Counted from the first letter of the stretch, positions 23,843-45,185 are shown. The stretch is DNA of 64,000 nt from Candidatus Enterousia sp. (GCA_045613445.1 JAZLAZ010000027.1:674-64673), one strand, 5' to 3'. Notes: generated by a model from the sequence alone, not told the origin. Numbers and translations are program-made.

Positions 23843-23868
23843 CACGCACCTACGGGTGCGTGTTTTTT
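23843..23868 (+). terminator. Intrinsic terminator of rnpB (CACGCACC-TACG-GGTGCGTG plus TTTTTT)
   Basis: Perfect 8-bp stem and T-tract. Confidence 0.7.
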
Positions 23869-24952
23869 ATTTTTGTTTGCTGCAAAATTCCAAAAATCCG
23901 AACATTGATTTATACATATCATATGTAGTCTCTATTGCAGCCTGACGCCATTCTGCATCTGATGGGCAAAAAATCTGTTTCAGTGCGCTCTTGGTCTGCG
24001 GGCTAACTTCCTTGAAATATCTGTATTCATATTTAGCGTTTCCCATATGATAAAATTTATTCATTTGGGCCTTATTTGCATCTACATCTGTACAAACACA
24101 AAAATCTGCACCATAGACACGATTGTGTGGTATATCATAACGTTGCTCCAACACACGCAACAAACCACCATTTATACACAACGGCAACTGTGTAGTTGTA
24201 TAATAAAATCGCTCAAAGAATCTGTGTTGGTTGTAATGATTCCCATATGGGCTGTGGAATTGGCCGTCACCTGGAACACTGTTATATCTGTAATACAATT
24301 CATTACCAGTAACCATCGCTATCGGAAACAAACCAGTTGCATTTTCTGCAATTTTATCGAACACAGACAACAGCATCTTGTTTTCAATAGTTGGGGCATT
24401 ACCGCCATAAAATAATCCTGTTGATTGTTTATATTGCCCCTGTTGAATCGCACTCCATTCTTTGAAAATCATATCGCGTTGTCGTATAATATCAATATGA
24501 TTCATCTTTTCGGCATGTGGTTTTTTAACCAAATATTTATGCACAGCGCTGTACAATGGGTTTAATGGTTTATGTTGAAAATCTGGAACAAAATTTCTAC
24601 CTAAATCTACTAATGTACCGTTTGAATCGCATGTTTCATGCATACCGTTATCCATTCCCCAACCGTTTACGACATGAATCAACACAATTGTATACTTTTT
24701 ACGCAAATCATACGATAAATTCGGTGCAAACTTATCCAAGAACAAATTCTGGGCAGCACTACCATAAAACGCATCAAGCCCACTGACACCAGAATAAAAC
24801 ACTACCTTTTCTGGTCCATCACCGATGATAACATATGGAATATCATACGAATGATTTTTTGCTACACACCAATTCAAATCACCTACATTGTGTGCATTAT
24901 GAACAAATTTTTCTGTTGCGTGCTGCCAATTTATCGGAAAGTAATTCTGCAT
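23867..24952 (-). CDS. Hypothetical protein, 361 aa; possibly an M14/AstE-AspA-like (DUF2817-like) metallohydrolase fold
   Basis: Long ORF with His/Glu-rich N-terminal region (HATEKFVHNAHN). The family assignment is from memory of sequence style only. Confidence 0.4.
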   Translation of the reverse strand: MQNYFPINWQHATEKFVHNAHNVGDLNWCVAKNHSYDIPYVIIGDGPEKVVFYSGVSGLDAFYGSAAQNLFLDKFAPNLSYDLRKKYTIVLIHVVNGWGMDNGMHETCDSNGTLVDLGRNFVPDFQHKPLNPLYSAVHKYLVKKPHAEKMNHIDIIRQRDMIFKEWSAIQQGQYKQSTGLFYGGNAPTIENKMLLSVFDKIAENATGLFPIAMVTGNELYYRYNSVPGDGQFHSPYGNHYNQHRFFERFYYTTTQLPLCINGGLLRVLEQRYDIPHNRVYGADFCVCTDVDANKAQMNKFYHMGNAKYEYRYFKEVSPQTKSALKQIFCPSDAEWRQAAIETTYDMYKSMFGFLEFCSKQK

Positions 24953-25008
24953 TTCATAAGTGCCTTTGGTTTTATATTATCTCTCCACCCCGCCGGCCCA
25001 CATATCTC

Positions 25009-25746
25009 CTACATGACTTTGCCTTGATTTGGGTAAAAAGTCAACTGAATATCACGCCATTTTTCGAATTCATTGACCGGCAACATACGAAATGGCTGAC
25101 ATGTATCAATTGCTTCCTGAATGGTTTCTAACACATATGCGAACGCTGGATCTGTTTCTGCACGCACAGCAGATTCAAACCAAACACCCTGAACAGTACC
25201 ATTTTTACGCATTTTCAAATGTGCCACTGCACGAATATCAGCAATATCAGACCGCCCATTATCAATCACCCAGCATCGCGTCATTGCAACACGCAACGCA
25301 TCAACAACCGATATTGTCAATGTTCTATCCAAAGACAAAACCTCGCGGTTTACTTTAATTACACGTTTTTTCTTTGGCGCATTTTCGTTTTTTTGTTCTG
25401 TTTTTTTATCTTGTTTTTCTTTTTCAATCTCTTTTATATCATTTTCAACCAAAGTCGTTGTTTTTATTTCAGTTTTTTCAACCGGCACCTCTTTTTTTTC
25501 TGGGCTAGTATCTTGTTTTTTTTCTGCCTTATTTTCTGGAACACCAGTATTATACAATTTTGTCTCATCGCCAGACACAACAACCTTATCCAAGTCTATT
25601 TCAATAATCTGGATTCTATCTGGCACAACTAATTTTGCGCGATTTACAACAACAGCGAACGAAGTGATCATTATCGCCACTAAAACCAAATGTCCACAAA
25701 CGGACATCAGTAAATTTTCTGTTGAAAATTGATTAAATTTACCCAT
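25009..25746 (-). CDS. tolA: TolA-like protein: N-terminal transmembrane anchor, Lys/Glu-rich linker, small C-terminal domain
   Basis: Position after tolQ-tolR. One N-terminal hydrophobic helix, then a KEKQDKKTEQKNE-type charged linker. Confidence 0.6.
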   Translation of the reverse strand: MGKFNQFSTENLLMSVCGHLVLVAIMITSFAVVVNRAKLVVPDRIQIIEIDLDKVVVSGDETKLYNTGVPENKAEKKQDTSPEKKEVPVEKTEIKTTTLVENDIKEIEKEKQDKKTEQKNENAPKKKRVIKVNREVLSLDRTLTISVVDALRVAMTRCWVIDNGRSDIADIRAVAHLKMRKNGTVQGVWFESAVRAETDPAFAYVLETIQEAIDTCQPFRMLPVNEFEKWRDIQLTFYPNQGKVM

Positions 25747-25749
25747 GTT

Positions 25750-26148
25750 TTATTCCGGTTGTGTTCGCAATCCAACTTTTTGAAATCCTGCATCCTTCAA
25801 TTTTCCCATCACAGACATAACAGCACCATAGTCTGCATGCGTATCACCACTAATCATAATTGTCAAATTTGGATTTTCACCACGCATTGCAACTGCACGT
25901 TTTACCACTTCATCACGCGACAACTGCGTTTCTGACAAGAAATAGCGTCCACTAGAATCCACACTGATTTGAATTGCGTGATCATTACCTGTCATAGCAG
26001 AAGCACCAGCACGGGGCAGTTCCAAATCGATACCGGTTGTCATCATTGGTGTTGTAACCATAAATACCGCCAACAGCACTGTCATAACATCAATCATTGG
26101 TGTCAACTGAATACTGCCATCAGATTGTCTTTTTCTTATTCTGGACAT
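25750..26148 (-). CDS. tolR: Biopolymer transport protein TolR/ExbD
   Basis: 132-aa ORF with the ExbD/TolR signature (IQLTPMIDVMTVLLAVFMV). Confidence 0.85.
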   Translation of the reverse strand: MSRIRKRQSDGSIQLTPMIDVMTVLLAVFMVTTPMMTTGIDLELPRAGASAMTGNDHAIQISVDSSGRYFLSETQLSRDEVVKRAVAMRGENPNLTIMISGDTHADYGAVMSVMGKLKDAGFQKVGLRTQPE

Positions 26149-26157
26149 TGTTCTGCC

Positions 26158-26649
26158 TTATTTTTTACACTTTAATTCGCAAACATCCTGGGTCAATTTA
26201 TCGTATAAATCATCCGACTTTTTTGCAAAATACTGATAAGCAATTGCTGCTGGCACTGCTGCAATCAATCCCAACGCAGTTGTTCCCAACGCAGCCGCCA
26301 ACCCAGGTGCGATTACACCAATACTGACTGATTGATTTACGCCAATTGCTGCAAAAGAATCCATAACCCCCCACACAGTCCCAAACAAACCGATAAAAGG
26401 AGAAATATAGGCGACCATTGACAAGAACCATAAATTTTTATCAAAGGGCGCAATTATTTTATCTGCAACTGTTTCTAAAACACAATTATTTTTCACAGAA
26501 ACAGGTGTTCTTTTAACAGATTTCCATAAACGAATTTTTTCAATAATAATCGCCCAAGACCAAACACTGAAACCAACCAAAACCAACGACACGAATAATG
26601 TCATTAAATCACCAGTAAATAAATTTAACATTGAAAAATTATTTTCCAT
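26158..26649 (-). CDS. tolQ: MotA/TolQ/ExbB-family proton-channel protein, a short 163-aa form
   Basis: Hydrophobic helices and a conserved C-terminal helix region (GLFGTVWGVMDSF). Sits downstream of ybgC as in tol operons. Confidence 0.8.
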   Translation of the reverse strand: MENNFSMLNLFTGDLMTLFVSLVLVGFSVWSWAIIIEKIRLWKSVKRTPVSVKNNCVLETVADKIIAPFDKNLWFLSMVAYISPFIGLFGTVWGVMDSFAAIGVNQSVSIGVIAPGLAAALGTTALGLIAAVPAAIAYQYFAKKSDDLYDKLTQDVCELKCKK

Positions 26650-37518: not shown

Positions 37519-37548
37519 AAAAATCCCCCAAAAACTGGGGCTTTTTTG
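37517..37548. terminator. Terminator hairpin after thyA (AAAAAAATCCCCCAAAAACTGGGGCTTTTTTG)
   Basis: Member of the same hairpin family. Confidence 0.55.
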
Positions 37549-37599
37549 TGGACATCTGCTGTTTTTATTATACAATCACAAAAAATCAAAGGTAAAGAT

Positions 37600-37935
37600 A
37601 TGTCAATGGAACACGAATTTTGCGACGGATGCAACCAACATTGTAAACTGGGGGCCGTTATTACAGCAAACGCCAATTGGATAATAACCACCAAACCAAC
37701 CATAAACAATAAAATTTTATTCGGTTATTATGACGAAAAAGATAATTTCAAATTGATAAAAGGCAACCAGGCAGTGGTCAGACAAGAAAAAGACAATAAC
37801 AATGTAGAAACAGCCTTGAACAAATCAAAAAAAGAAGCAATCAAATACGCCCAAATATGCGCAAAACAATACTTAGATTACACCAAACGGGCAATATTTC
37901 TAAATGAAGTAGTAGCGTTACAGCTACACAAATAA
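37600..37935 (+). CDS. Hypothetical protein, 111 aa, with an N-terminal CxxC..C cluster (CDGCNQHC)
   Basis: ATG at 37600 with an AAAGGTAAAG RBS. The longer GTG start at 37546 lies inside the upstream terminator. Confidence 0.5.
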   Translation: MSMEHEFCDGCNQHCKLGAVITANANWIITTKPTINNKILFGYYDEKDNFKLIKGNQAVVRQEKDNNNVETALNKSKKEAIKYAQICAKQYLDYTKRAIFLNEVVALQLHK

Positions 37936-37957
37936 ATCAAAATTATGCAAATAAAAA

Positions 37958-38010
37958 GAAATCGGAAATCGTAGTGAACAGACGCTACATAAGATTTCCG
38001 ATTTATTTTT
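37958..38010. terminator. Large bidirectional terminator: 12-bp perfect stem AAATCGGAAATC/GATTTCCGATTT, 22-nt loop, T-runs on both strands
   Basis: Sits between convergent genes (37600..37935 plus-strand and 38038..40155 minus-strand). Confidence 0.65.
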
Positions 38011-38037: not shown

Positions 38038-40155
38038 CTACATAGGTGGGAAACATTCCCCGGTACTTTCTGCACAACAGGCCCGTTCACCATCTGGGAA
38101 CAAAATAAATTCTTCACCTGTACAGCAACCATACATATCAGGCGGATTTCCATCAGAACATGTTTCTTCTTCGACAATCAGTTCATCGGTATATTCTGTA
38201 ACAATCTCAGGCTTATCCATTGTAACAACAGGATTTTGCACAACAGTTTCTGTTTCATATTCTGGTGATGCAACAAACATTTCATCAGAACGAGAAGCCG
38301 CACCATATGCAGGTTTTGAAGCCAAAACCTCATCTTCTGTTGGAACATATGGTTTTTCTTCAACTGGCGCTTCTGCCATTGGTCCAATCACAGGCCCCAA
38401 AGTCTCCAATTCTATAAACGGACTAACGATTTCTGGTGCATCATTTATCGGTTCTTTTTCAATAATAACAGGCTCTGTTTTTTGCTCTGTCACGGGTACA
38501 ATTTCTGCTTCCACAGCAGATTCAATCACTGGTTCTATAACTTCTACTACAACTGGTTCAATTTCTGGCACTATCACAGGTTCAACGGTCACAGATTCAA
38601 CCACAGCCGGTTCAACCACAACAGGTTCTACATCAACGACAGATTCAACCTCTGTAACAACGGGTTCTGTTTTAGCCCCCAACACAGGCATTGTATCATT
38701 CATAGACCGTTGATACACCCACAATGTAAAAACAGACAATATAATCAAAACACCCAACAAAACATAATATAACATTGTCGGTTTAACACGATTTACATCA
38801 TTTCCAACAGATGTCACAGCCATTGGTACTTCGTTTGTAATTGGTGACACAGGACGAAAATCCGATGAAACAGGCGCAGGCTCAATATCATCTGATGCAT
38901 ATTCAGGCGCAACCACAGGTTCCAGCACATCCTGAACAGGTTTCTGTTCCTGCATTACAACCGGTTCTGATTTTTTTTGCCAAACTTCATCTGTCTGAAC
39001 ATCAGCCATTGGAATCGGTGTAAACCCATCAAAAAGCGGTGTAGTTTCAATTTCTTCTTGAACATCGACATGTACATCATCTGGGCTAAAATCGGTTGGT
39101 GGCGTAAAAGACAATGGTTGAACAAATGTTTCTTGTTCAGATACCTCAACATCTGGCACATCCACAGGCTCAATCATCGGCACAACTGGGGCAGGGGTAC
39201 TTTCCTCAACCACAGGTGCAACAACAGGCACAACCGGTTCCGGCATCACTGCTGGTGCATTAAAATCAATTGGTTTGAACGCAATTTCTTCATCGATAAT
39301 ATCCGGATTAGTATCAAACAGCGGTTTAACTTCTTCGGCCATCGTTTCTGCCTTTGTTTCAATAATTTCAGTTTTTGTTTCTGTGATTTCTGCCGGCACA
39401 GGTGCAGATTTCGCAACAACAATTTCCGCCGGTGCAGGCACAACAGGCAAATTGATATTCAGCTTATCCAATATTGACTGTGCAACATCAATTTCATCTT
39501 GCGCAGCCGCCAGTCTGTTCTGAGCATTAGTTAAACGTTTTTTTGCCCGTTTCAGCTTATCATTCACAGAATCAATCTGGGACTCAATACGCAAAATCTT
39601 GGCAGCAGACTGTTTTGTAGGTTCTTTACCAATCGCACGCTTCGCATCTGTCAGCTTTTGACGCAAAGTCTTTATACGATTTTGCAATTCGATAATTTTT
39701 TCATTTGTCTTGTCAATCGTTTCACGACTGCGACTGACAGTAAGTTCCGCAGCCCCCAAGCGTTCAATCGCCGCGCGTTTAGCTGCGACATGACGAAATT
39801 CAACCAACGCATGCAACGGCTCATTTAACACATCATCTGATTCATATGCATGAATCAAGTCATCGTATTGTGCCAGTCCTGCATACTCAATATCCAGTTT
39901 TTGATATTTATTATCCTTCTTTGGGCGAACTGTTTCTAAATCGACACCATAGTCATTTTCCAGAATATCATCCCACTTGCGGTCCCCAACAGGATTTATA
40001 ACCAACAATACATTCGGTTTAATATCGTCAACCAAGAAATCTATGATGAACACCAATTTATTATCAGCGTCATAATACGCCCGAAAAGAATATCCTGCGA
40101 TACTATAATCGACTGATGTCAATGGTTGAAAAAATGTTTCTCTCTCGTTTGTCAT
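38038..40155 (-). CDS. Bitopic membrane protein, 705 aa: cytoplasmic N-domain plus coiled coil, one transmembrane helix, long Pro/Val/Glu-rich low-complexity periplasmic region, Cys-rich C-terminal knot
   Basis: Coiled-coil segment (IELQNRIKTLRQKLTDAKRAI..), transmembrane helix LYYVLLGVLIILSVFTLWVY, EPVVV-type repeats, C-terminal CSDGNPPDMYGCCTGEEFILFPDGERACCAESTGEC. Its start is 16 nt downstream of the gcrA stop. Confidence 0.75.
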   Translation of the reverse strand: MTNERETFFQPLTSVDYSIAGYSFRAYYDADNKLVFIIDFLVDDIKPNVLLVINPVGDRKWDDILENDYGVDLETVRPKKDNKYQKLDIEYAGLAQYDDLIHAYESDDVLNEPLHALVEFRHVAAKRAAIERLGAAELTVSRSRETIDKTNEKIIELQNRIKTLRQKLTDAKRAIGKEPTKQSAAKILRIESQIDSVNDKLKRAKKRLTNAQNRLAAAQDEIDVAQSILDKLNINLPVVPAPAEIVVAKSAPVPAEITETKTEIIETKAETMAEEVKPLFDTNPDIIDEEIAFKPIDFNAPAVMPEPVVPVVAPVVEESTPAPVVPMIEPVDVPDVEVSEQETFVQPLSFTPPTDFSPDDVHVDVQEEIETTPLFDGFTPIPMADVQTDEVWQKKSEPVVMQEQKPVQDVLEPVVAPEYASDDIEPAPVSSDFRPVSPITNEVPMAVTSVGNDVNRVKPTMLYYVLLGVLIILSVFTLWVYQRSMNDTMPVLGAKTEPVVTEVESVVDVEPVVVEPAVVESVTVEPVIVPEIEPVVVEVIEPVIESAVEAEIVPVTEQKTEPVIIEKEPINDAPEIVSPFIELETLGPVIGPMAEAPVEEKPYVPTEDEVLASKPAYGAASRSDEMFVASPEYETETVVQNPVVTMDKPEIVTEYTDELIVEEETCSDGNPPDMYGCCTGEEFILFPDGERACCAESTGECFPPM

Positions 40156-40170
40156 TTACAAACCCCTGTC

Positions 40171-40776
40171 TTATTTCTTTTTTGGTGGTGCAAATTGATA
40201 TGCCTGCTTGCAGTGTTCATAACAATAAGGCTTTCCCACAAAAACCGTTTCCCCACAGAAATGAAAATGTTCAGAATCAGGATCCCCGATTGGCCAACGA
40301 CACTGATTAGGCTTCAAGTTAGCCATTTCTAGTGAATGTTGAATAATACGCTGATGAACAGCCAAACTCTTGGCATCATTTCTAACAGCAGTCACTGTTT
40401 TTTTTGTATTTTCTTTTGGTTCTTCAACTTTTTTAGTCGCTGTCGTTTTTTTAACAGTACTTTTTTCTGTCACTTTTTCTACAGGTTTCACCGCCGCTTT
40501 CTTCGTGACAGATTTTACAGTCGTTTTCTTTTCAGCTGTTGCAGATTTTGCAGTCTTCGCTGTACTGGCCACTTTTTTTACGATTCCAGTCTTTTTTTCT
40601 GGGATTTCGACAGTTGATGCACCACCCGCCTTGGCATTCCAACCAAGTCTGTTTAATTTACCCACAATTGCATTTTTTGACATCCCCAGTCTTTTACCAA
40701 TTTCAGATGTAGACAGTCCTTTGCCAGTCAATGCTTTTAACTTTTTTAATGTTGCGTTATCCCAACCTTTGCTCAT
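40171..40776 (-). CDS. gcrA: Cell-cycle transcriptional regulator GcrA
   Basis: N-terminal GcrA DNA-binding signature W..ATLKKLKALTGKGLSTSEIGKRLGMSKNAIVGKLNRLG. C-terminal CRWPIGDPDSEHFHFCGE...GKPYCYEHC..AYQ. Lys/Ala/Thr-rich linker. Confidence 0.88.
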   Translation of the reverse strand: MSKGWDNATLKKLKALTGKGLSTSEIGKRLGMSKNAIVGKLNRLGWNAKAGGASTVEIPEKKTGIVKKVASTAKTAKSATAEKKTTVKSVTKKAAVKPVEKVTEKSTVKKTTATKKVEEPKENTKKTVTAVRNDAKSLAVHQRIIQHSLEMANLKPNQCRWPIGDPDSEHFHFCGETVFVGKPYCYEHCKQAYQFAPPKKK

Positions 40777-40849
40777 TTTACAAAACCCTTAGATTACATT
40801 ATAATATAATTGTAACATAATTCCGATTCGAAACGCAAGGGAGAAAAAT

Positions 40850-41308
40850 ATGATTTCTTATATCTTTTTCATTATTTTACTAGCTTTTGCGGCATTTTTG
40901 TCTATTAAAATATCAATTGCTGACCTGCGTCGCAGAATCATACCAGACGCATACTTATTTCCATTGATGCTGATTGGGTTGACTTTGATATCATTTTATT
41001 CTTTTCCAACAAACATTCAAACAGCAACTATTGGCGCTATATTTGGCTATACAATGGCGGCCATTATCGGAATCATATTTGAAAAAACAAAGAAATCTAA
41101 CGATGCACCGATTGGCATGGGCGACCTAAAATTATTAGGGGTAGGCGGGATATGGCTGGGCACAAATGGACTGGCAATTGCACTGATCATCGCATGCATT
41201 TCCGGCATGATATGGTCAAGACAAAAACAACAAAAATATATCCCTTTTGCACCATTCTTTATATTTGGGGGATTTTTATCTTTTATTATAAATCTGTTTT
41301 TGTTATAA
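40850..41308 (+). CDS. A24-family prepilin peptidase (CpaA/TadV-like), orphan: no pilus-assembly genes nearby
   Basis: 152-aa polytopic ORF with the two Asp motifs (ISIADLRRRIIPD and GMGDLKLLG) characteristic of Flp prepilin peptidases. Confidence 0.7.
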   Translation: MISYIFFIILLAFAAFLSIKISIADLRRRIIPDAYLFPLMLIGLTLISFYSFPTNIQTATIGAIFGYTMAAIIGIIFEKTKKSNDAPIGMGDLKLLGVGGIWLGTNGLAIALIIACISGMIWSRQKQQKYIPFAPFFIFGGFLSFIINLFLL

Positions 41309-41330
41309 TCAATCAAACAGGGAACCGGAA

Positions 41331-43511
41331 GTGAGAAACAGTTTCAATAAATTTCTTTGTATTTTCATTGGATTATCTGCGCTTTGTGCAGTTGCACATG
41401 CAGTAACGCCATTTTCAAAATATGGCGTGATTCAGAATGTTCAGAATTATTCTACGAACCCGTTTTGGAATCCAAATTCACCATATCATAATACAAATAT
41501 GCCACAACCGGTATATGCCACTGGTCCAGATGTAAACACAGATGAATGTCAACGCATCGTAACCAGTTTGGTCACAGTTCAATGTATGAACATGAACAAC
41601 TGTATTGATGCACAAATCAGCGATATACGACCTGCAATTATGTTGCAGTTATCGCGCATGACTGGTGGCAATTATGCAACTGCATGCGGTGGCTATTTAG
41701 ACGGTGCGTTTAATGATTATGTTGCACAATACGCAAATGCTGCGCCACATGGTGCTGCAACAGCATTTCCAAATGCAGTCATGCCAAATCCAAACGCATC
41801 TGGCACAGCAATCCAAATTCCAAATCCATTGGCACCCCAAGCACCTGATTGGGCAACCGACATGATGGAACGCAAACAGGAATTACAAGAATTACAATCA
41901 TTAAACGGTGCTGGCAATTCTGGTGTATATGCTGCAAATTTTCCAACCACATATGCCGATTTATCTTTTTCAGAACGCATGGAAAACGCCCAGGCTGGAT
42001 ATGAACCATATAAAGACACCAAGGTGTTTCATGAAATAAAAATTGAAGACGAAAAAACATATCTCAATCGCATAAATCGACCAGCAACCACAACAACAAA
42101 TAATTCCGCAACAACAAATAATTCTACAACAACAAACAACGCCCAACCATCACCGGTTGACACGGGTAGCAATACACCAGCAACACCGGCAGAAACCAAC
42201 ACTCCCGCATTGATAACCGAAGATATTCCTGACGAATTCGAAGCCTTACTGCCATGGTATGGCATTTTAATTGTAAAAGCAGGCAGTCTTGACAGATATG
42301 CCAGCCTTGATTTACCAATTGTATCGACAGAATATATGAAATCGCATCGCGATGAATTTTTTCCCGCAAATTCAGACAGGGCACTTGGACTCAGACGTGG
42401 CTGTACACACTCTAATCATACCGCGCACGACAAAGATGTTATCAATCGTGCTGCGCATAAAACAATGGGCGAACAAGACAGTTTTTGGTCAGGCAGTGAT
42501 TTTTATGTATATGATGGCCAAGATGTATATTGGGGATGGGCAACAATTGTTGGCGAAGTTGTATTGGCATTGCTAACCATGGGGATTAGTGCCGAGGCCA
42601 GCGCCGCAGCAGCTGCAGGACAGGCCGCATCTGCAGGACAGGCCGCAGTCGCTGGTGCACAAACAGCACATGGTGCTGTTGCTGCTGCAAGGGGGGTACG
42701 TATATCATCAAATGCATTAAAAATATTCGAATCATCCAGTTCTGCAATCAAGGCTGTAAAACTGACAAAAAATGGAAGCAAAATAGATGACGCTATCAGA
42801 TTGGCCAAAGCTGCAAAAAGCGGCCAAGATACTGCTGCGATAAAGTCGCGTGCCGATGCAGTAAAAGCATTGGCGGACGCTGGCATTACCGTAAAAAAAG
42901 GTCCAAACGCAAATACATTGAAAGCTATTGGTAGAGCATTAGCAACAGCAAAATCTACCGTCAAACCACTAACATGGACATCATCACTGTACAGACCATG
43001 GCGCTTGGTTGCAGCTGGGGTAAAAAACATAAAACCAACAACATCTAAATATCTGGGACGTGGTGCAACATGGGCAACCCGTTTCAAAACGCTGGGGGTT
43101 GTTGGTGGTGCGGTTGGACTAAACTATTTCGGACGTGAACTTCTAAAAGGATTTGGTTACAGTTCTGCTGTGTTACAAGATCCGACAACTGGTGATGTTG
43201 GATTTAACAGTTTTGGATTATTATCCGACGACAATGTCGAAGGACGCGAAAATGTCATATCACATGGCACATGGGTACAATTCGATGCCGTGGGCGGTGC
43301 CAACGAAGACGATGCATTGAACGAGGCAATGCGATTTGCTGAAGAATTGACCAAAGACATCAATTCTATCAATGCATCCGATCCATTATGCGATGTTGAT
43401 ATCTATGTTGTACAACCAGCAATCAGTAACCCAGAAAAAATACCTGGCGCCAGATCAATATATTATATATTGATGAATGACGACATGAAATTAAAAGTTC
43501 GTACAAAATAA
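41331..43511 (+). CDS. Secreted hypothetical protein, 726 aa, tandem paralog 1
   Basis: GTG start with an AGGGAA RBS. Signal peptide MRNSFNKFLCIFIGLSALCAVAHA, Thr/Asn-rich linker, internal hydrophobic segment WATIVGEVVLALLTMGISA, Ala/Lys-rich region. C-terminal domain ..PLCDVDIYVVQPAISNP...YYILMND.. is shared with 43512..45185. Confidence 0.75.
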   Translation: MRNSFNKFLCIFIGLSALCAVAHAVTPFSKYGVIQNVQNYSTNPFWNPNSPYHNTNMPQPVYATGPDVNTDECQRIVTSLVTVQCMNMNNCIDAQISDIRPAIMLQLSRMTGGNYATACGGYLDGAFNDYVAQYANAAPHGAATAFPNAVMPNPNASGTAIQIPNPLAPQAPDWATDMMERKQELQELQSLNGAGNSGVYAANFPTTYADLSFSERMENAQAGYEPYKDTKVFHEIKIEDEKTYLNRINRPATTTTNNSATTNNSTTTNNAQPSPVDTGSNTPATPAETNTPALITEDIPDEFEALLPWYGILIVKAGSLDRYASLDLPIVSTEYMKSHRDEFFPANSDRALGLRRGCTHSNHTAHDKDVINRAAHKTMGEQDSFWSGSDFYVYDGQDVYWGWATIVGEVVLALLTMGISAEASAAAAAGQAASAGQAAVAGAQTAHGAVAAARGVRISSNALKIFESSSSAIKAVKLTKNGSKIDDAIRLAKAAKSGQDTAAIKSRADAVKALADAGITVKKGPNANTLKAIGRALATAKSTVKPLTWTSSLYRPWRLVAAGVKNIKPTTSKYLGRGATWATRFKTLGVVGGAVGLNYFGRELLKGFGYSSAVLQDPTTGDVGFNSFGLLSDDNVEGRENVISHGTWVQFDAVGGANEDDALNEAMRFAEELTKDINSINASDPLCDVDIYVVQPAISNPEKIPGARSIYYILMNDDMKLKVRTK

Positions 43512-45185
43512 ATGATATCACGAATCGTTTGTCTTTTTATCTCAATATGTTTACTGCCATCATTATCGCATGCGGTTCAGATCGAAACACCATGTGCAAC
43601 GCAAATTTACGCATCAAAACTGGCACAAACTGTAAGTACAATTGACGAATCCGATGACGAAGAAGTTATCAAACAATGGATTTATTCTATATTTACAAAC
43701 AAAGATACTGTATCCGATATCTTAAAATGTCCAGAATTAAATATCTCTGATAACGCTACGATAAAATTTACCCCCATAAAATATGTATTTCCAATGGGGC
43801 GCGAAGTCGTCATAAATTATGAAACCCAACCAAAAATATTAAAACAACGATTGGCACTGGCAGACAAGCGCGACTTGCCACCTTATGACGCAAACCCACG
43901 CATCGGCGAAATGGGGGATGGAACAATATGGACAAATACAGATCCTGCATGGTATGCAATAATGGTTGTTGAATCTGGTGCATTAAACAATTTTGTTGGT
44001 GAACATAAAAACAACACCATATCAGTTCAATATATACATGATAATATTGACGCCCTGTACCCAAAAAATCGTGGTTGTACAACAAAACACGCACTGGCCC
44101 GTGATTCCAAACCAATCAATCGTGCTGTAAAACAGGCTGTTGATATTGAAAATGATTCAAATGACTATTATGTGGCAGGTGATGCAAATCTGGCATGGAT
44201 TGGATATGCAGAAATCGCAATGGATGTTGCAATAACTGTTGCAACCATGGGCGGTGGCGTATTGATATCAGGCGCCACAAAATCTGCCCGTGCATCACGC
44301 GCATTAAAGGGCATGGCCACATCACTGAAACAATTACGCAATCTGGATTCTGTTCGTGATTACATAAAATATACATCACGCGCAGCACAACTGACAGATG
44401 AAATAAAAAAGTTAGACAAAGTTACCGATGCTGCAAAAATCGCAGAAAAAACAGCCGAACTTGATAAATTAAAAGATGCTATCAAGGGTTTAGAATCAAT
44501 CGATGATGTAAAAAAATATAAGCAGACATCCGAAACCTTTTCAGATTTGAATAAATATCGCAGAACTTTGAACGGAATCAAAGCGTTAAAACAGGCACAG
44601 CGTGGAAATATAATCGCACGCGGCGTCAAGGTTGCAAAAAGTGCAAACGCCGCCATGTCAGGCAATAAATTGATTGCAAAAGGTGCAAAACTAGGTCGCG
44701 CCAGCAAAGTGTCAACCCGTGTAAACGATTGGCTGTTTCATTCAACATTGAAAAACATTGGCATGCTGGGAAAAATGGAAACATTTGGTGGTGCAATTTA
44801 CGGTGGCATACAATTTATTGGTGGCATGATGTATGACTTTACAGAAACCAGCACAGGCGAATTTACAAACGATATTCAATTTCAACCTTTGTTATTATTA
44901 TCCGCAGACGATTTGCAAGGCGGTCAAGCCGATAAAATAAATTATGGAATGTGGTTGATGTGGTCTGGGGATTCGACCAATCCCGCCGATGATGACGCAG
45001 CATATTTGCAAGCAATGGACTTTGCTGCAAAATTCCACGAAGATTTAATGGATGTTCAAAATAACACAAACCGTCCATGTAATGTTGATATATATGTTGC
45101 AAAGCCTATCATACGCAACCCAGGTTCGGCCAATCCAGAATTATACTATCTGATTATGAACGATACGCCATGGACAACAAAATAA
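43512..45185 (+). CDS. Secreted hypothetical protein, 557 aa, tandem paralog 2
   Basis: Starts 1 nt after the stop of the previous gene. Signal peptide MISRIVCLFISICLLPSLSHA. Shares RGCT..H....INRA...hydrophobic segment, Lys/Ala-rich region and the C-terminal RPCNVDIYVAKPIIRNP..LYYLIMND with 41331..43511. Confidence 0.75.
   Translation: MISRIVCLFISICLLPSLSHAVQIETPCATQIYASKLAQTVSTIDESDDEEVIKQWIYSIFTNKDTVSDILKCPELNISDNATIKFTPIKYVFPMGREVVINYETQPKILKQRLALADKRDLPPYDANPRIGEMGDGTIWTNTDPAWYAIMVVESGALNNFVGEHKNNTISVQYIHDNIDALYPKNRGCTTKHALARDSKPINRAVKQAVDIENDSNDYYVAGDANLAWIGYAEIAMDVAITVATMGGGVLISGATKSARASRALKGMATSLKQLRNLDSVRDYIKYTSRAAQLTDEIKKLDKVTDAAKIAEKTAELDKLKDAIKGLESIDDVKKYKQTSETFSDLNKYRRTLNGIKALKQAQRGNIIARGVKVAKSANAAMSGNKLIAKGAKLGRASKVSTRVNDWLFHSTLKNIGMLGKMETFGGAIYGGIQFIGGMMYDFTETSTGEFTNDIQFQPLLLLSADDLQGGQADKINYGMWLMWSGDSTNPADDDAAYLQAMDFAAKFHEDLMDVQNNTNRPCNVDIYVAKPIIRNPGSANPELYYLIMNDTPWTTK

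Follow-up and report, generated by a model that had tools for sequence, protein, structure and literature searches.

gcrA is paired with the gene of an orphan bitopic membrane protein in Candidatus Enterousia and its relatives: a probable operon

The gcrA-X pair and its conservation

This study concerns a 64,000-nucleotide stretch of DNA from Candidatus Enterousia sp. (GCA_045613445.1, JAZLAZ010000027.1:674-64673), referred to below as the window, in which gcrA is followed on the same strand by a large open reading frame (ORF). The alphaproteobacterial cell cycle has few master regulators. GcrA, which is one of them, has to our knowledge so far been studied as the product of a free-standing gene in free-living model species. 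In the window, gcrA (40171..40776, 201 amino acids (aa)) comes first and the downstream ORF (38038..40155, 705 aa), which we call X and which encodes an orphan bitopic membrane protein, comes second. Both were confirmed on the minus strand, where a first-pass annotation made from the sequence had placed them; the gap between them, given there as 16 nucleotides (nt), measures 15 nt (40156..40170).

The gcrA product was assigned to the GcrA family of sigma-70 cofactors on the basis of Pfam PF07750 and of its alignment to Caulobacter GcrA. It matches PF07750 over aa 5-196 with 95.9 bits, against a gathering cutoff of 26.9, and has an N-terminal helix-turn-helix (HTH) DNA-binding domain, a Lys-rich linker and a C-terminal CCCH sigma-interacting domain. 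Both domains can be aligned to the Caulobacter crescentus GcrA structures 7ye1_G, 5yix_B and 5yiu_A. In the Caulobacter protein, R33, N34, I37, G38, K39 and R42 provide the N6-methyladenine (m6A) pocket and the base and backbone contacts, and C118, C133, C143 and H146 are the zinc ligands of the sigma-binding domain (PMC5887438). The alignment places K34, N35, V38, G39, K40 and R43 at the former positions, the changes from R to K and from I to V being conservative, and C159, C174, C185 and H188 at the latter. The DNA-reading residues of the m6A pocket and the zinc-binding residues of the sigma-binding domain are conserved. The cutoff of the NCBIfam equivalog NF050816 was not reached (76.7 versus 280 bits) because the Lys-rich linker is divergent, though both domains match, and we classify the protein from its sequence as a divergent member of the GcrA family and not as a curated equivalog.

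The junction between the two genes reads TAA-GACAGGGGTTTGTAA-ATG and carries a Shine-Dalgarno sequence, AGGGG, at 40163..40167 (minus strand). Neither a promoter-like site, the presence of which had been raised as a point to check in the first-pass annotation, nor a terminator-like site was found in it, and stable RNA structure is absent (folding versus shuffled sequence, z = 0.03). The sole terminator of the gcrA-X unit lies after X, in the form of an intrinsic hairpin at 37953..38010 on the minus strand (-23 kcal/mol, z = -3.4). Because an A-run flanks it on one side and a U-run on the other, it can work in both directions, including for a convergent 129-aa ORF; the description of a large bidirectional terminator after the second gene only was therefore accurate. 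In the window, gcrA and X lie in the same reading frame, with TAA-GAC-AGG-GGT-TTG-TAA, and so two in-frame stops, between them. The shared frame looks coincidental, because the spacer lengths of relatives are mostly not multiples of three.

An exhaustive search for relatives of X returned 292 cluster representatives at E<=1e-3, the majority with lengths of 600-850 aa and alignments over the full protein, and a scan of one genome per species found a relative encoded in 310 species genomes. The best 80 of these 310 are all metagenome-assembled genomes, assigned to Candidatus Enterousia or to uncultured Alphaproteobacteria/Rickettsiales, from ruminant, bird, rabbit and human gut. Among the matches listed, the X family is, to judge from these assignments, restricted to a single uncultured order. 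That order, Rs-D84, includes Enterousia, whose genomes measure 0.75-1.0 Mb and lack flagella, the tricarboxylic acid (TCA) cycle and respiration (PMC12306168).

The arrangement of the genes was followed in 157 loci, of which 83 came from species genomes or single look-ups and 74 from metagenome contigs; the metagenome scan was seeded with the most divergent X subfamily, and loci were counted only if they had at least 650 nt upstream. gcrA lies directly upstream of X on the same strand in 83/83 genome-derived loci and in all 74 metagenome loci with enough upstream sequence, so that the adjacency holds in 157/157 loci, where 2-74 nt separate the two genes. In 82 species loci, X starts 2-65 nt (median 21) after the gcrA stop codon, with a GGGG(A) core kept, and in the 74 metagenome loci it starts 11-74 nt after it. 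The pairing is retained down to an X identity of ~35%. The GcrA domains are almost invariant across the relatives, and the GcrA and X proteins share one phylogeny. Because it recurs in every locus with enough upstream sequence, the arrangement is, on this comparative count, far beyond chance.

The pair is part of a five-gene block whose order is constant in the genome-derived loci: genes for a 557-aa protein, a 726-aa protein and a Peptidase_A24 lie on one strand, and gcrA and X are divergent from them. Downstream of X, the 129-aa ORF, thyA and tig are adjacent in some species and not within 5 kb in others. Rearrangements occur directly after X in many species, and none was found inside the block. 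Since neither gene order nor strand varies, the spacers span 2-74 nt with a GGGG(A) core and the terminator comes only after the second gene, gcrA and X very probably form a co-transcribed operon. The co-transcription proposed in the first-pass annotation is thereby strongly supported by comparative evidence.

Two individual records in the X family require comment. A single apparent GcrA::X fusion protein (P0055, L164 1..752), in which a GcrA C-terminal domain is joined to an X N-domain, was rejected as most likely an assembly chimera, because the 5' end of the 752-nt scaffold is GC-rich and unrelated and its 3' end repeats the hairpin-coding region in inverted orientation. A 674-aa homolog (among P0219, P0279 and P0280), which lies on contigs of up to 135 kb, is named 'Microviridae sp.' in nr; we treat this name as annotation noise, and no phage record with a relative was found.

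Anatomy of X

The anatomy of X was derived from an alignment of 26 full-length members (alignment A1), AlphaFold2 (AF2) models and composition; all coordinates in this section are on the minus strand. The protein begins with an N-domain (aa 13-105, 39841..40119), modelled as a beta-rich alpha/beta globule with a predicted local distance difference test (pLDDT) score of 81-95. It contains many invariant columns and a near-invariant core motif, RKWDDIL.NDYGVDLETVRPKKDNKYQKLDIEY, and aa 1-110 have a net charge of -12. It is followed by an antiparallel helical hairpin (H111-174 / H181-234, 39454..39825) with a pLDDT above 90, a conserved turn, IGKEPTKQSAAKIL, and a basic character, with a net charge of +9 over aa 111-235. 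N-domain and hairpin together are modelled confidently, at a pLDDT of 82.

The remainder of the cytoplasmic part is an acidic linker rich in Pro, Val and Glu (aa 236-455, 38791..39450), which has a net charge of -36 and is predicted to be disordered (pLDDT below 50). Embedded in it are four conserved motifs: EEVKPLFDxxPxIxDEEIAFKPIDF (39262..39336), found in 69/75 orthologs, QPLSFTPP (39097..39120), TPLFD (TPLFD/PVLD, 39010..39042) and RPVSPIT (38836..38856). The linker residues P278, L279, P284, A292, F293, P295, F298 and P438 are invariant in alignment A1. The pattern P[LIV]xF occurs 2.0 times per linker versus 0.22 times in shuffles, an approximately 9-fold enrichment.

A single transmembrane (TM) helix lies at aa 459-481 (38713..38781). 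The hydropathy maximum of 2.42 at aa 462-480 is the sole such segment in the protein, the helix is present in 75/75 complete orthologs, and it has a conserved face, with invariant columns L467, L470, L473, L478, W479, Y481 and Q482. The first-pass annotation had described ~350 aa of low-complexity sequence following the TM helix; the helix in fact splits this sequence into ~220 aa on the cytoplasmic side (236-455) and ~130 aa on the periplasmic side (482-612). The latter forms an acidic Glu/Pro/Val spacer (38320..38712; V 23%, E 20%, P 14%) that varies in both length and sequence, and the whole periplasmic part ranges from 184 to 303 aa in the 75 orthologs. From aa 614, the motif KPAY(N/G)xSQxExMFVAxxxYET(D/E) follows (38248..38316), in which K614, P615 and F627 are nearly invariant in alignment A1.

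The C-terminus consists of a six-Cys module, C-x10-CC-x14-CC-x6-C-FPP(M/L), with FPPM in this protein (aa 666-705, 38041..38160). The Cys residues are at positions 666, 677, 678, 693, 694 and 701, and X contains no other, which bears out the earlier description of a C-terminal Cys module. Exactly six Cys, all after the TM helix, are found in 70 of the 75 complete orthologs; their spacing is identical in 56/75, with 4-6 aa between the end of the module and the C-terminus. To judge from this pattern, it is probably a disulfide-bonded periplasmic knob. Pfam gave no match to the module, and a homolog search with the C-terminal Cys region, whose sensitivity is limited by the word index, returned four close relatives only and no other protein context.

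A rumen-derived subclade of X (L086-L114 and L160) is devoid of Cys and has instead an acidic, Tyr-rich tail (..EEAAYQA..YEE, e.g. FYDAEEAAYQAGDDGYDEY). It retains the N-domain, the hairpin, the motifs, the TM helix and gcrA upstream, and we interpret it from the sequences as a C-terminal module exchange within one family. Because the Cys-less members keep these elements, the conserved core of the family can be defined as the cytoplasmic part and the TM helix.

No signal peptide was found on X. Genes for lpxB and tolQ/tolR in the window indicate a Gram-negative envelope. Given this, the lack of a signal peptide and the absence of Cys from the ~460 N-terminal residues, X is likely to cross the inner membrane once, with the N-terminus in the cytoplasm and the C-terminus in the periplasm (N-in/C-out), consistent with a disulfide-bonded knob in the periplasm. 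The AF2 models, the hydropathy profile and the Cys distribution support the earlier proposal of a cytoplasmic N-domain with a coiled coil, one TM helix and an extracytoplasmic Cys module.

With regard to known families, neither Pfam nor NCBIfam gave a family above cutoff for X or its parts, and their matches to aa 120-235 are coiled-coil noise. Searching PDB sequences with an X profile gave tropomyosin-type coiled-coil matches only. Foldseek with aa 1-300 found nothing at E<=1e-3. Its best results, the p85 nSH2-iSH2 matches (template-modelling score about 0.3), were dismissed as reflecting a generic layout in which a small domain stands next to a hairpin. The N-domain alone gave no match at E<=1e-3 against PDB and BFVD. 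The match of the N-domain to a well-known family that had been considered in the first-pass annotation was thus not obtained: no Pfam, NCBIfam, PDB or Foldseek relative was found. According to the models, it is a new, confidently predicted domain without a structural neighbour in the PDB and BFVD searches.

Two database labels attached to homologs are to be read accordingly. JGI names two of the three homologs P0219, P0279 and P0280 'division protein CdvB (Snf7/Vps24/ESCRT-III)'. We rejected this label for X, for which sub-threshold coiled-coil matches only were obtained and no ESCRT-III or PspA protein was among the top Foldseek results; most likely the helical hairpin gave rise to the name. 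The homologs P0258, P0275 and P0276 carry the precomputed Pfam accession PF28019.1, which could not be resolved, and a Pfam re-scan of P0258 and P0275 gave nothing above cutoff.

The shared control region and the neighbouring genes

gcrA and the divergent Peptidase_A24 gene share a control region of 73 nt (40777..40849). It contains the sequence CGATTCG at 40824..40830, a GcrA-type box that matches YGAKTCK/YGAKTCG. The recognition motif of GcrA has been published as TGATTCG / YGAKTCK (PMC4647560) and also as YGAKTCG (PMC9976885). The first-pass annotation had pointed to GANTC sites upstream of gcrA as worth checking, and a GANTC is indeed kept at a fixed position in 82/83 loci. It belongs to the block CCCTTGC.TTTCGA.TCG, which is at least 95% identical in 84 sequences and is the most conserved part of the control region. 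In some species CGAATCG stands on the gcrA-coding strand, which is the same 7-mer on the complementary strand. The occurrence at 40824..40830 is the only CGA[AT]TCG in the intergenic DNA of the window.

For gcrA, a weak -35-like element, TTGCGT (40833..40838), and an extended -10 element, TGTTACAAT (40809..40817), are predicted on the minus strand, the latter being followed by more overlapping -10-like hexamers. For the A24 gene, a near-consensus promoter, TTTACA-17-TATAAT, is predicted on the plus strand at 40777..40805. Published GcrA boxes lie at -20+/-1, -30+/-2 or +5..+30 (PMC9976885). The centre of the box is at about +16 from the predicted start site of the A24 unit and at -25, -31 or -36 from candidate gcrA starts, depending on the -10 element chosen; by these positions, the box could serve the gcrA unit, the A24 unit or both. 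Given a methylation box in the operon promoter, autoregulation of the gcrA-X operon by GcrA can be proposed, and we rate its chances as evenly balanced.

The divergent, co-conserved three-gene unit (40850..45185, plus strand) starts with the Peptidase_A24 gene (40850..41308, 152 aa), identified by Pfam PF01478 (55.6 bits) and by its IPD and GMGDLK catalytic motifs. It is followed by the genes of a 726-aa (41331..43511) and a 557-aa (43512..45185) secreted or membrane protein, which are paralogues without a Pfam or NCBIfam family. Each carries a signal peptide and a hydrophobic, Ala-rich central part, and the two have a C-terminal motif in common, C(D/N)VDIYV...YY(I/L)(I/L)MND. The A24 gene is found at this position in 83/83 genome-derived loci; in loci truncated on the upstream side, the two larger genes are not always included. 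In the metagenome loci examined, all three genes are present in 15/21 with a Cys-less X and in 15/18 with a Cys-containing X, and A24 in 39/39. Co-variation of the Cys knob with the 726-aa and 557-aa neighbours was therefore rejected, both being present in both subclades. No pilin or Tad genes were found adjacent to the A24 unit.

On the other side of the pair, the convergent 129-aa ORF (37546..37935, plus strand), which has a CxxCxxxC motif and no family, has its terminator in common with X. A relative of it was found beside X in only 3/83 genome-derived loci (L004, L005 and L008). Further away in the window, which is ~90% coding, lies a Tol-like cluster (23867..26649, minus strand) with tolQ (MotA_ExbB, PF01618), tolR (ExbD, PF02472) and a gene for a 245-aa bitopic protein without a family. 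The two tol genes and this third gene occupy 25009..26649, and the position at which tolB would be expected holds a gene for a DUF2817 protein and not TolB.

Interpretation and comparison with known systems

In the interpretation that we favour, to which we assign a probability of roughly 45%, gcrA-X is a conserved operon, probably under GcrA/CcrM control, that makes GcrA together with a bitopic envelope scaffold. The operon would be read from a promoter with a GcrA/CcrM-type methylation box, GcrA would feed back on its own operon and possibly also on the divergent prepilin-peptidase operon, and X would be produced along with GcrA, at one and the same stage of the cell cycle. On the cytoplasmic side (~458 aa), X would expose the N-domain, the hairpin for possible self-association and the acidic linker with several P-[LIV]-x-F-type docking motifs; on the periplasmic side (~225 aa), a TonB-like Glu/Pro/Val spacer would end in a small disulfide-bonded six-Cys knob. 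X could then act, like PodJ, RodZ or MapZ, as a cell-cycle-timed envelope scaffold or tether that would bind cytoplasmic partners through its hairpin and motifs and an envelope partner through its periplasmic tip. The features that argue for a scaffold are the confident models of N-domain and hairpin, the disordered acidic linker with its enriched motifs and the conserved face of the TM helix, and we propose this role tentatively, at somewhat less than even odds. The arrangement suggests a possible coupling of cell-cycle control to an envelope or surface structure, as put forward in the first-pass annotation.

Several observations weigh against this interpretation. X has no known partner, and none of its homologs has been studied. 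A promoter inside gcrA may exist, and several overlapping -10-like hexamers make it ambiguous how far the box lies from the gcrA start. Much of the conservation of the control region is already accounted for by its two ribosome-binding sites and two promoters. ccrM was not found in the 64-kb window, which holds just rRNA- or tRNA-methylase-like DPPY/NPPY ORFs. GANTC is neither depleted in the window (180 observed versus 162+/-11 expected) nor enriched in its intergenic DNA (1.8 versus 2.9 per kb), so that its signature was discarded as an uninformative proxy for CcrM. For these reasons, the methylation system is an assumption for this organism. The Cys knob is missing from one subclade, so that the core function can do without the periplasmic tip. 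Finally, the loci all come from a single lineage of bacteria with compact genomes, and part of the invariance may be inherited and not selected, since a spacer of 20 nt is a small target for rearrangement.

Taken further, the last point becomes an explanation of its own, in which the genes were packed together in the ancestor of the order (~0.9 Mb genome, 90% coding) and then inherited, the linkage has no functional meaning, and X is a generic envelope or host/partner-interaction protein. The dense coding of the window, genomes of 0.75-1.0 Mb (PMC12306168), the single lineage and a very short spacer that offers almost no target for rearrangement would all fit. We nevertheless consider it rather improbable: rearrangements have occurred right after X in many species with the five-gene block left intact, the pair has survived both divergence to ~35% X identity and the exchange of the C-terminal module, and the shared control region holds a GcrA-type box. 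A functional link could also take a form other than a scaffold. X might be a membrane-anchored regulator of GcrA, similar to the anti-sigma factors of extracytoplasmic function (ECF) sigma factors, whose N-domain or acidic linker holds GcrA at the membrane. GcrA is a sigma-70 cofactor (PMC4647560), which makes control by sequestration conceivable, and the order of the genes, a regulator and then a single-pass N-in membrane protein, is of the sigma/anti-sigma type in 157/157 loci. Moreover, what is invariant in X is its cytoplasmic part (N-domain, hairpin and motifs) together with the TM helix, the periplasmic tip being exchangeable, and the charges are complementary, as the GcrA linker is Lys-rich whereas aa 1-110 of X have a net charge of -12 and its linker one of -36. 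However, no anti-sigma domain or fold was found on X with Pfam or Foldseek, X is far larger than known anti-sigma factors and more hub-like in having several docking motifs, and the sole apparent fusion of the two proteins, P0055, is a chimeric scaffold artefact. A regulator of this kind is therefore unlikely in our view, as is a release of GcrA by a periplasmic signal (envelope state, or redox via the Cys knob) or by regulated proteolysis; that X is a dedicated trans-envelope partner that tethers or sequesters GcrA at the inner membrane until an envelope cue arrives is quite unlikely.

A further candidate identity of X is that of an energy-transducing protein that spans the periplasm and is powered by TolQR or ExbBD, namely the TolA or TonB of this lineage; its Glu/Pro/Val periplasmic spacer does resemble the Pro-rich rod of TonB. 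This identity is contradicted by the position of the TM helix at aa 459-481 and not at the N-terminus, by the lack of the conserved His of the SHLS motif in the TM columns and by the lack of a TonB_C or TolA domain according to Pfam. The window, besides, already has tolQ and tolR with a separate, linked third gene for a bitopic protein. We rejected it as highly improbable.

If the favoured interpretation of gcrA-X as an operon for GcrA and an envelope scaffold is correct, its implications concern both the organisms and the regulator. An order-wide gcrA operon with a GcrA-motif promoter points to a minimal, hard-wired link between cell cycle and envelope in bacteria that retain only a minor part of their genome. 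As a scaffold, X would be a candidate replacement for polarity or division factors that are missing from reduced genomes. It represents an unannotated protein family, encoded in at least 310 species genomes and present in common members of the ruminant, bird and human gut microbiota. Should X bind GcrA, this would add a new layer of GcrA control; should it tether GcrA, the two would correspond to a sigma/anti-sigma pair with GcrA in the place of the sigma factor, and no earlier case of post-translational, envelope-linked control of GcrA would be known. In the searchable literature, we found neither a mention of Rs-D84 together with GcrA nor a description of an invariant gcrA operon with a GcrA-type box.

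Among known systems, the Caulobacter crescentus polarity scaffold PodJ offers a regulatory parallel. PodJ is needed for pilus biogenesis, and its long disordered linker recruits partners. It resembles X, in architecture only, in being bitopic and N-in/C-out with a cytoplasmic coiled coil, a long disordered linker and a periplasmic C-terminal part. podJ is a direct target of GcrA in Caulobacter (PMC4647560) and thus provides a precedent for the regulatory logic proposed for gcrA-X. Expression is GcrA-linked in both cases, through the regulon for podJ and through the probable operon for X, and the X locus also lies near a prepilin peptidase gene. In contrast, X lacks the TPR/Sel1 and peptidoglycan-binding domains that PodJ has in the periplasm; the periplasmic part of X has no Pfam domain at E<=10 and carries the acidic spacer and the six-Cys knob in their place. 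X also has no Pfam or NCBIfam family at cutoff, and its N-domain fold has no known neighbour.

ECF sigma/anti-sigma pairs such as RpoE-RseA share with gcrA-X a regulator gene followed by an adjacent gene for a single-pass N-in protein with a periplasmic C-terminus, co-transcription being probable for gcrA-X. They differ in that GcrA is a sigma-70 cofactor and not a sigma factor and in that X is 3-7 times larger; X has no zf-HC2, RskA, RseA_N or similar domain according to Pfam and no fold neighbour. The extended acidic, Pro-rich periplasmic spacer and the small C-terminal domain recall TonB and TolA, whereas the central TM helix and the absence of the SHLS His and of TonB_C and TolA domains set X apart from both. 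TolA is encoded by the third gene of a tolQ-tolR-tolA cluster, whereas X lies elsewhere. Of the first-pass comparison with PodJ-, TolA- or TonB-like proteins, the architectural resemblance was retained and membership of these families was not, since the features of TolA and TonB are lacking and the periplasmic domains of PodJ are absent.

RodZ and MapZ are bitopic cell-cycle scaffolds that serve as markers or anchors for cytoskeletal machines. By an analogy from general knowledge only, X resembles them in having a cytoplasmic N-terminal interaction domain, one TM helix, a low-complexity extracytoplasmic linker and a small C-terminal domain. It has neither the RodZ HTH nor a MapZ domain, and its likeness to these anchors of MreB and FtsZ is an architectural analogy only. 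The architecture of X is thus of a known general kind, that of bitopic envelope scaffolds and tethers, whereas the protein family has no annotation and no earlier description of its probable operon with gcrA was found in the literature searched.

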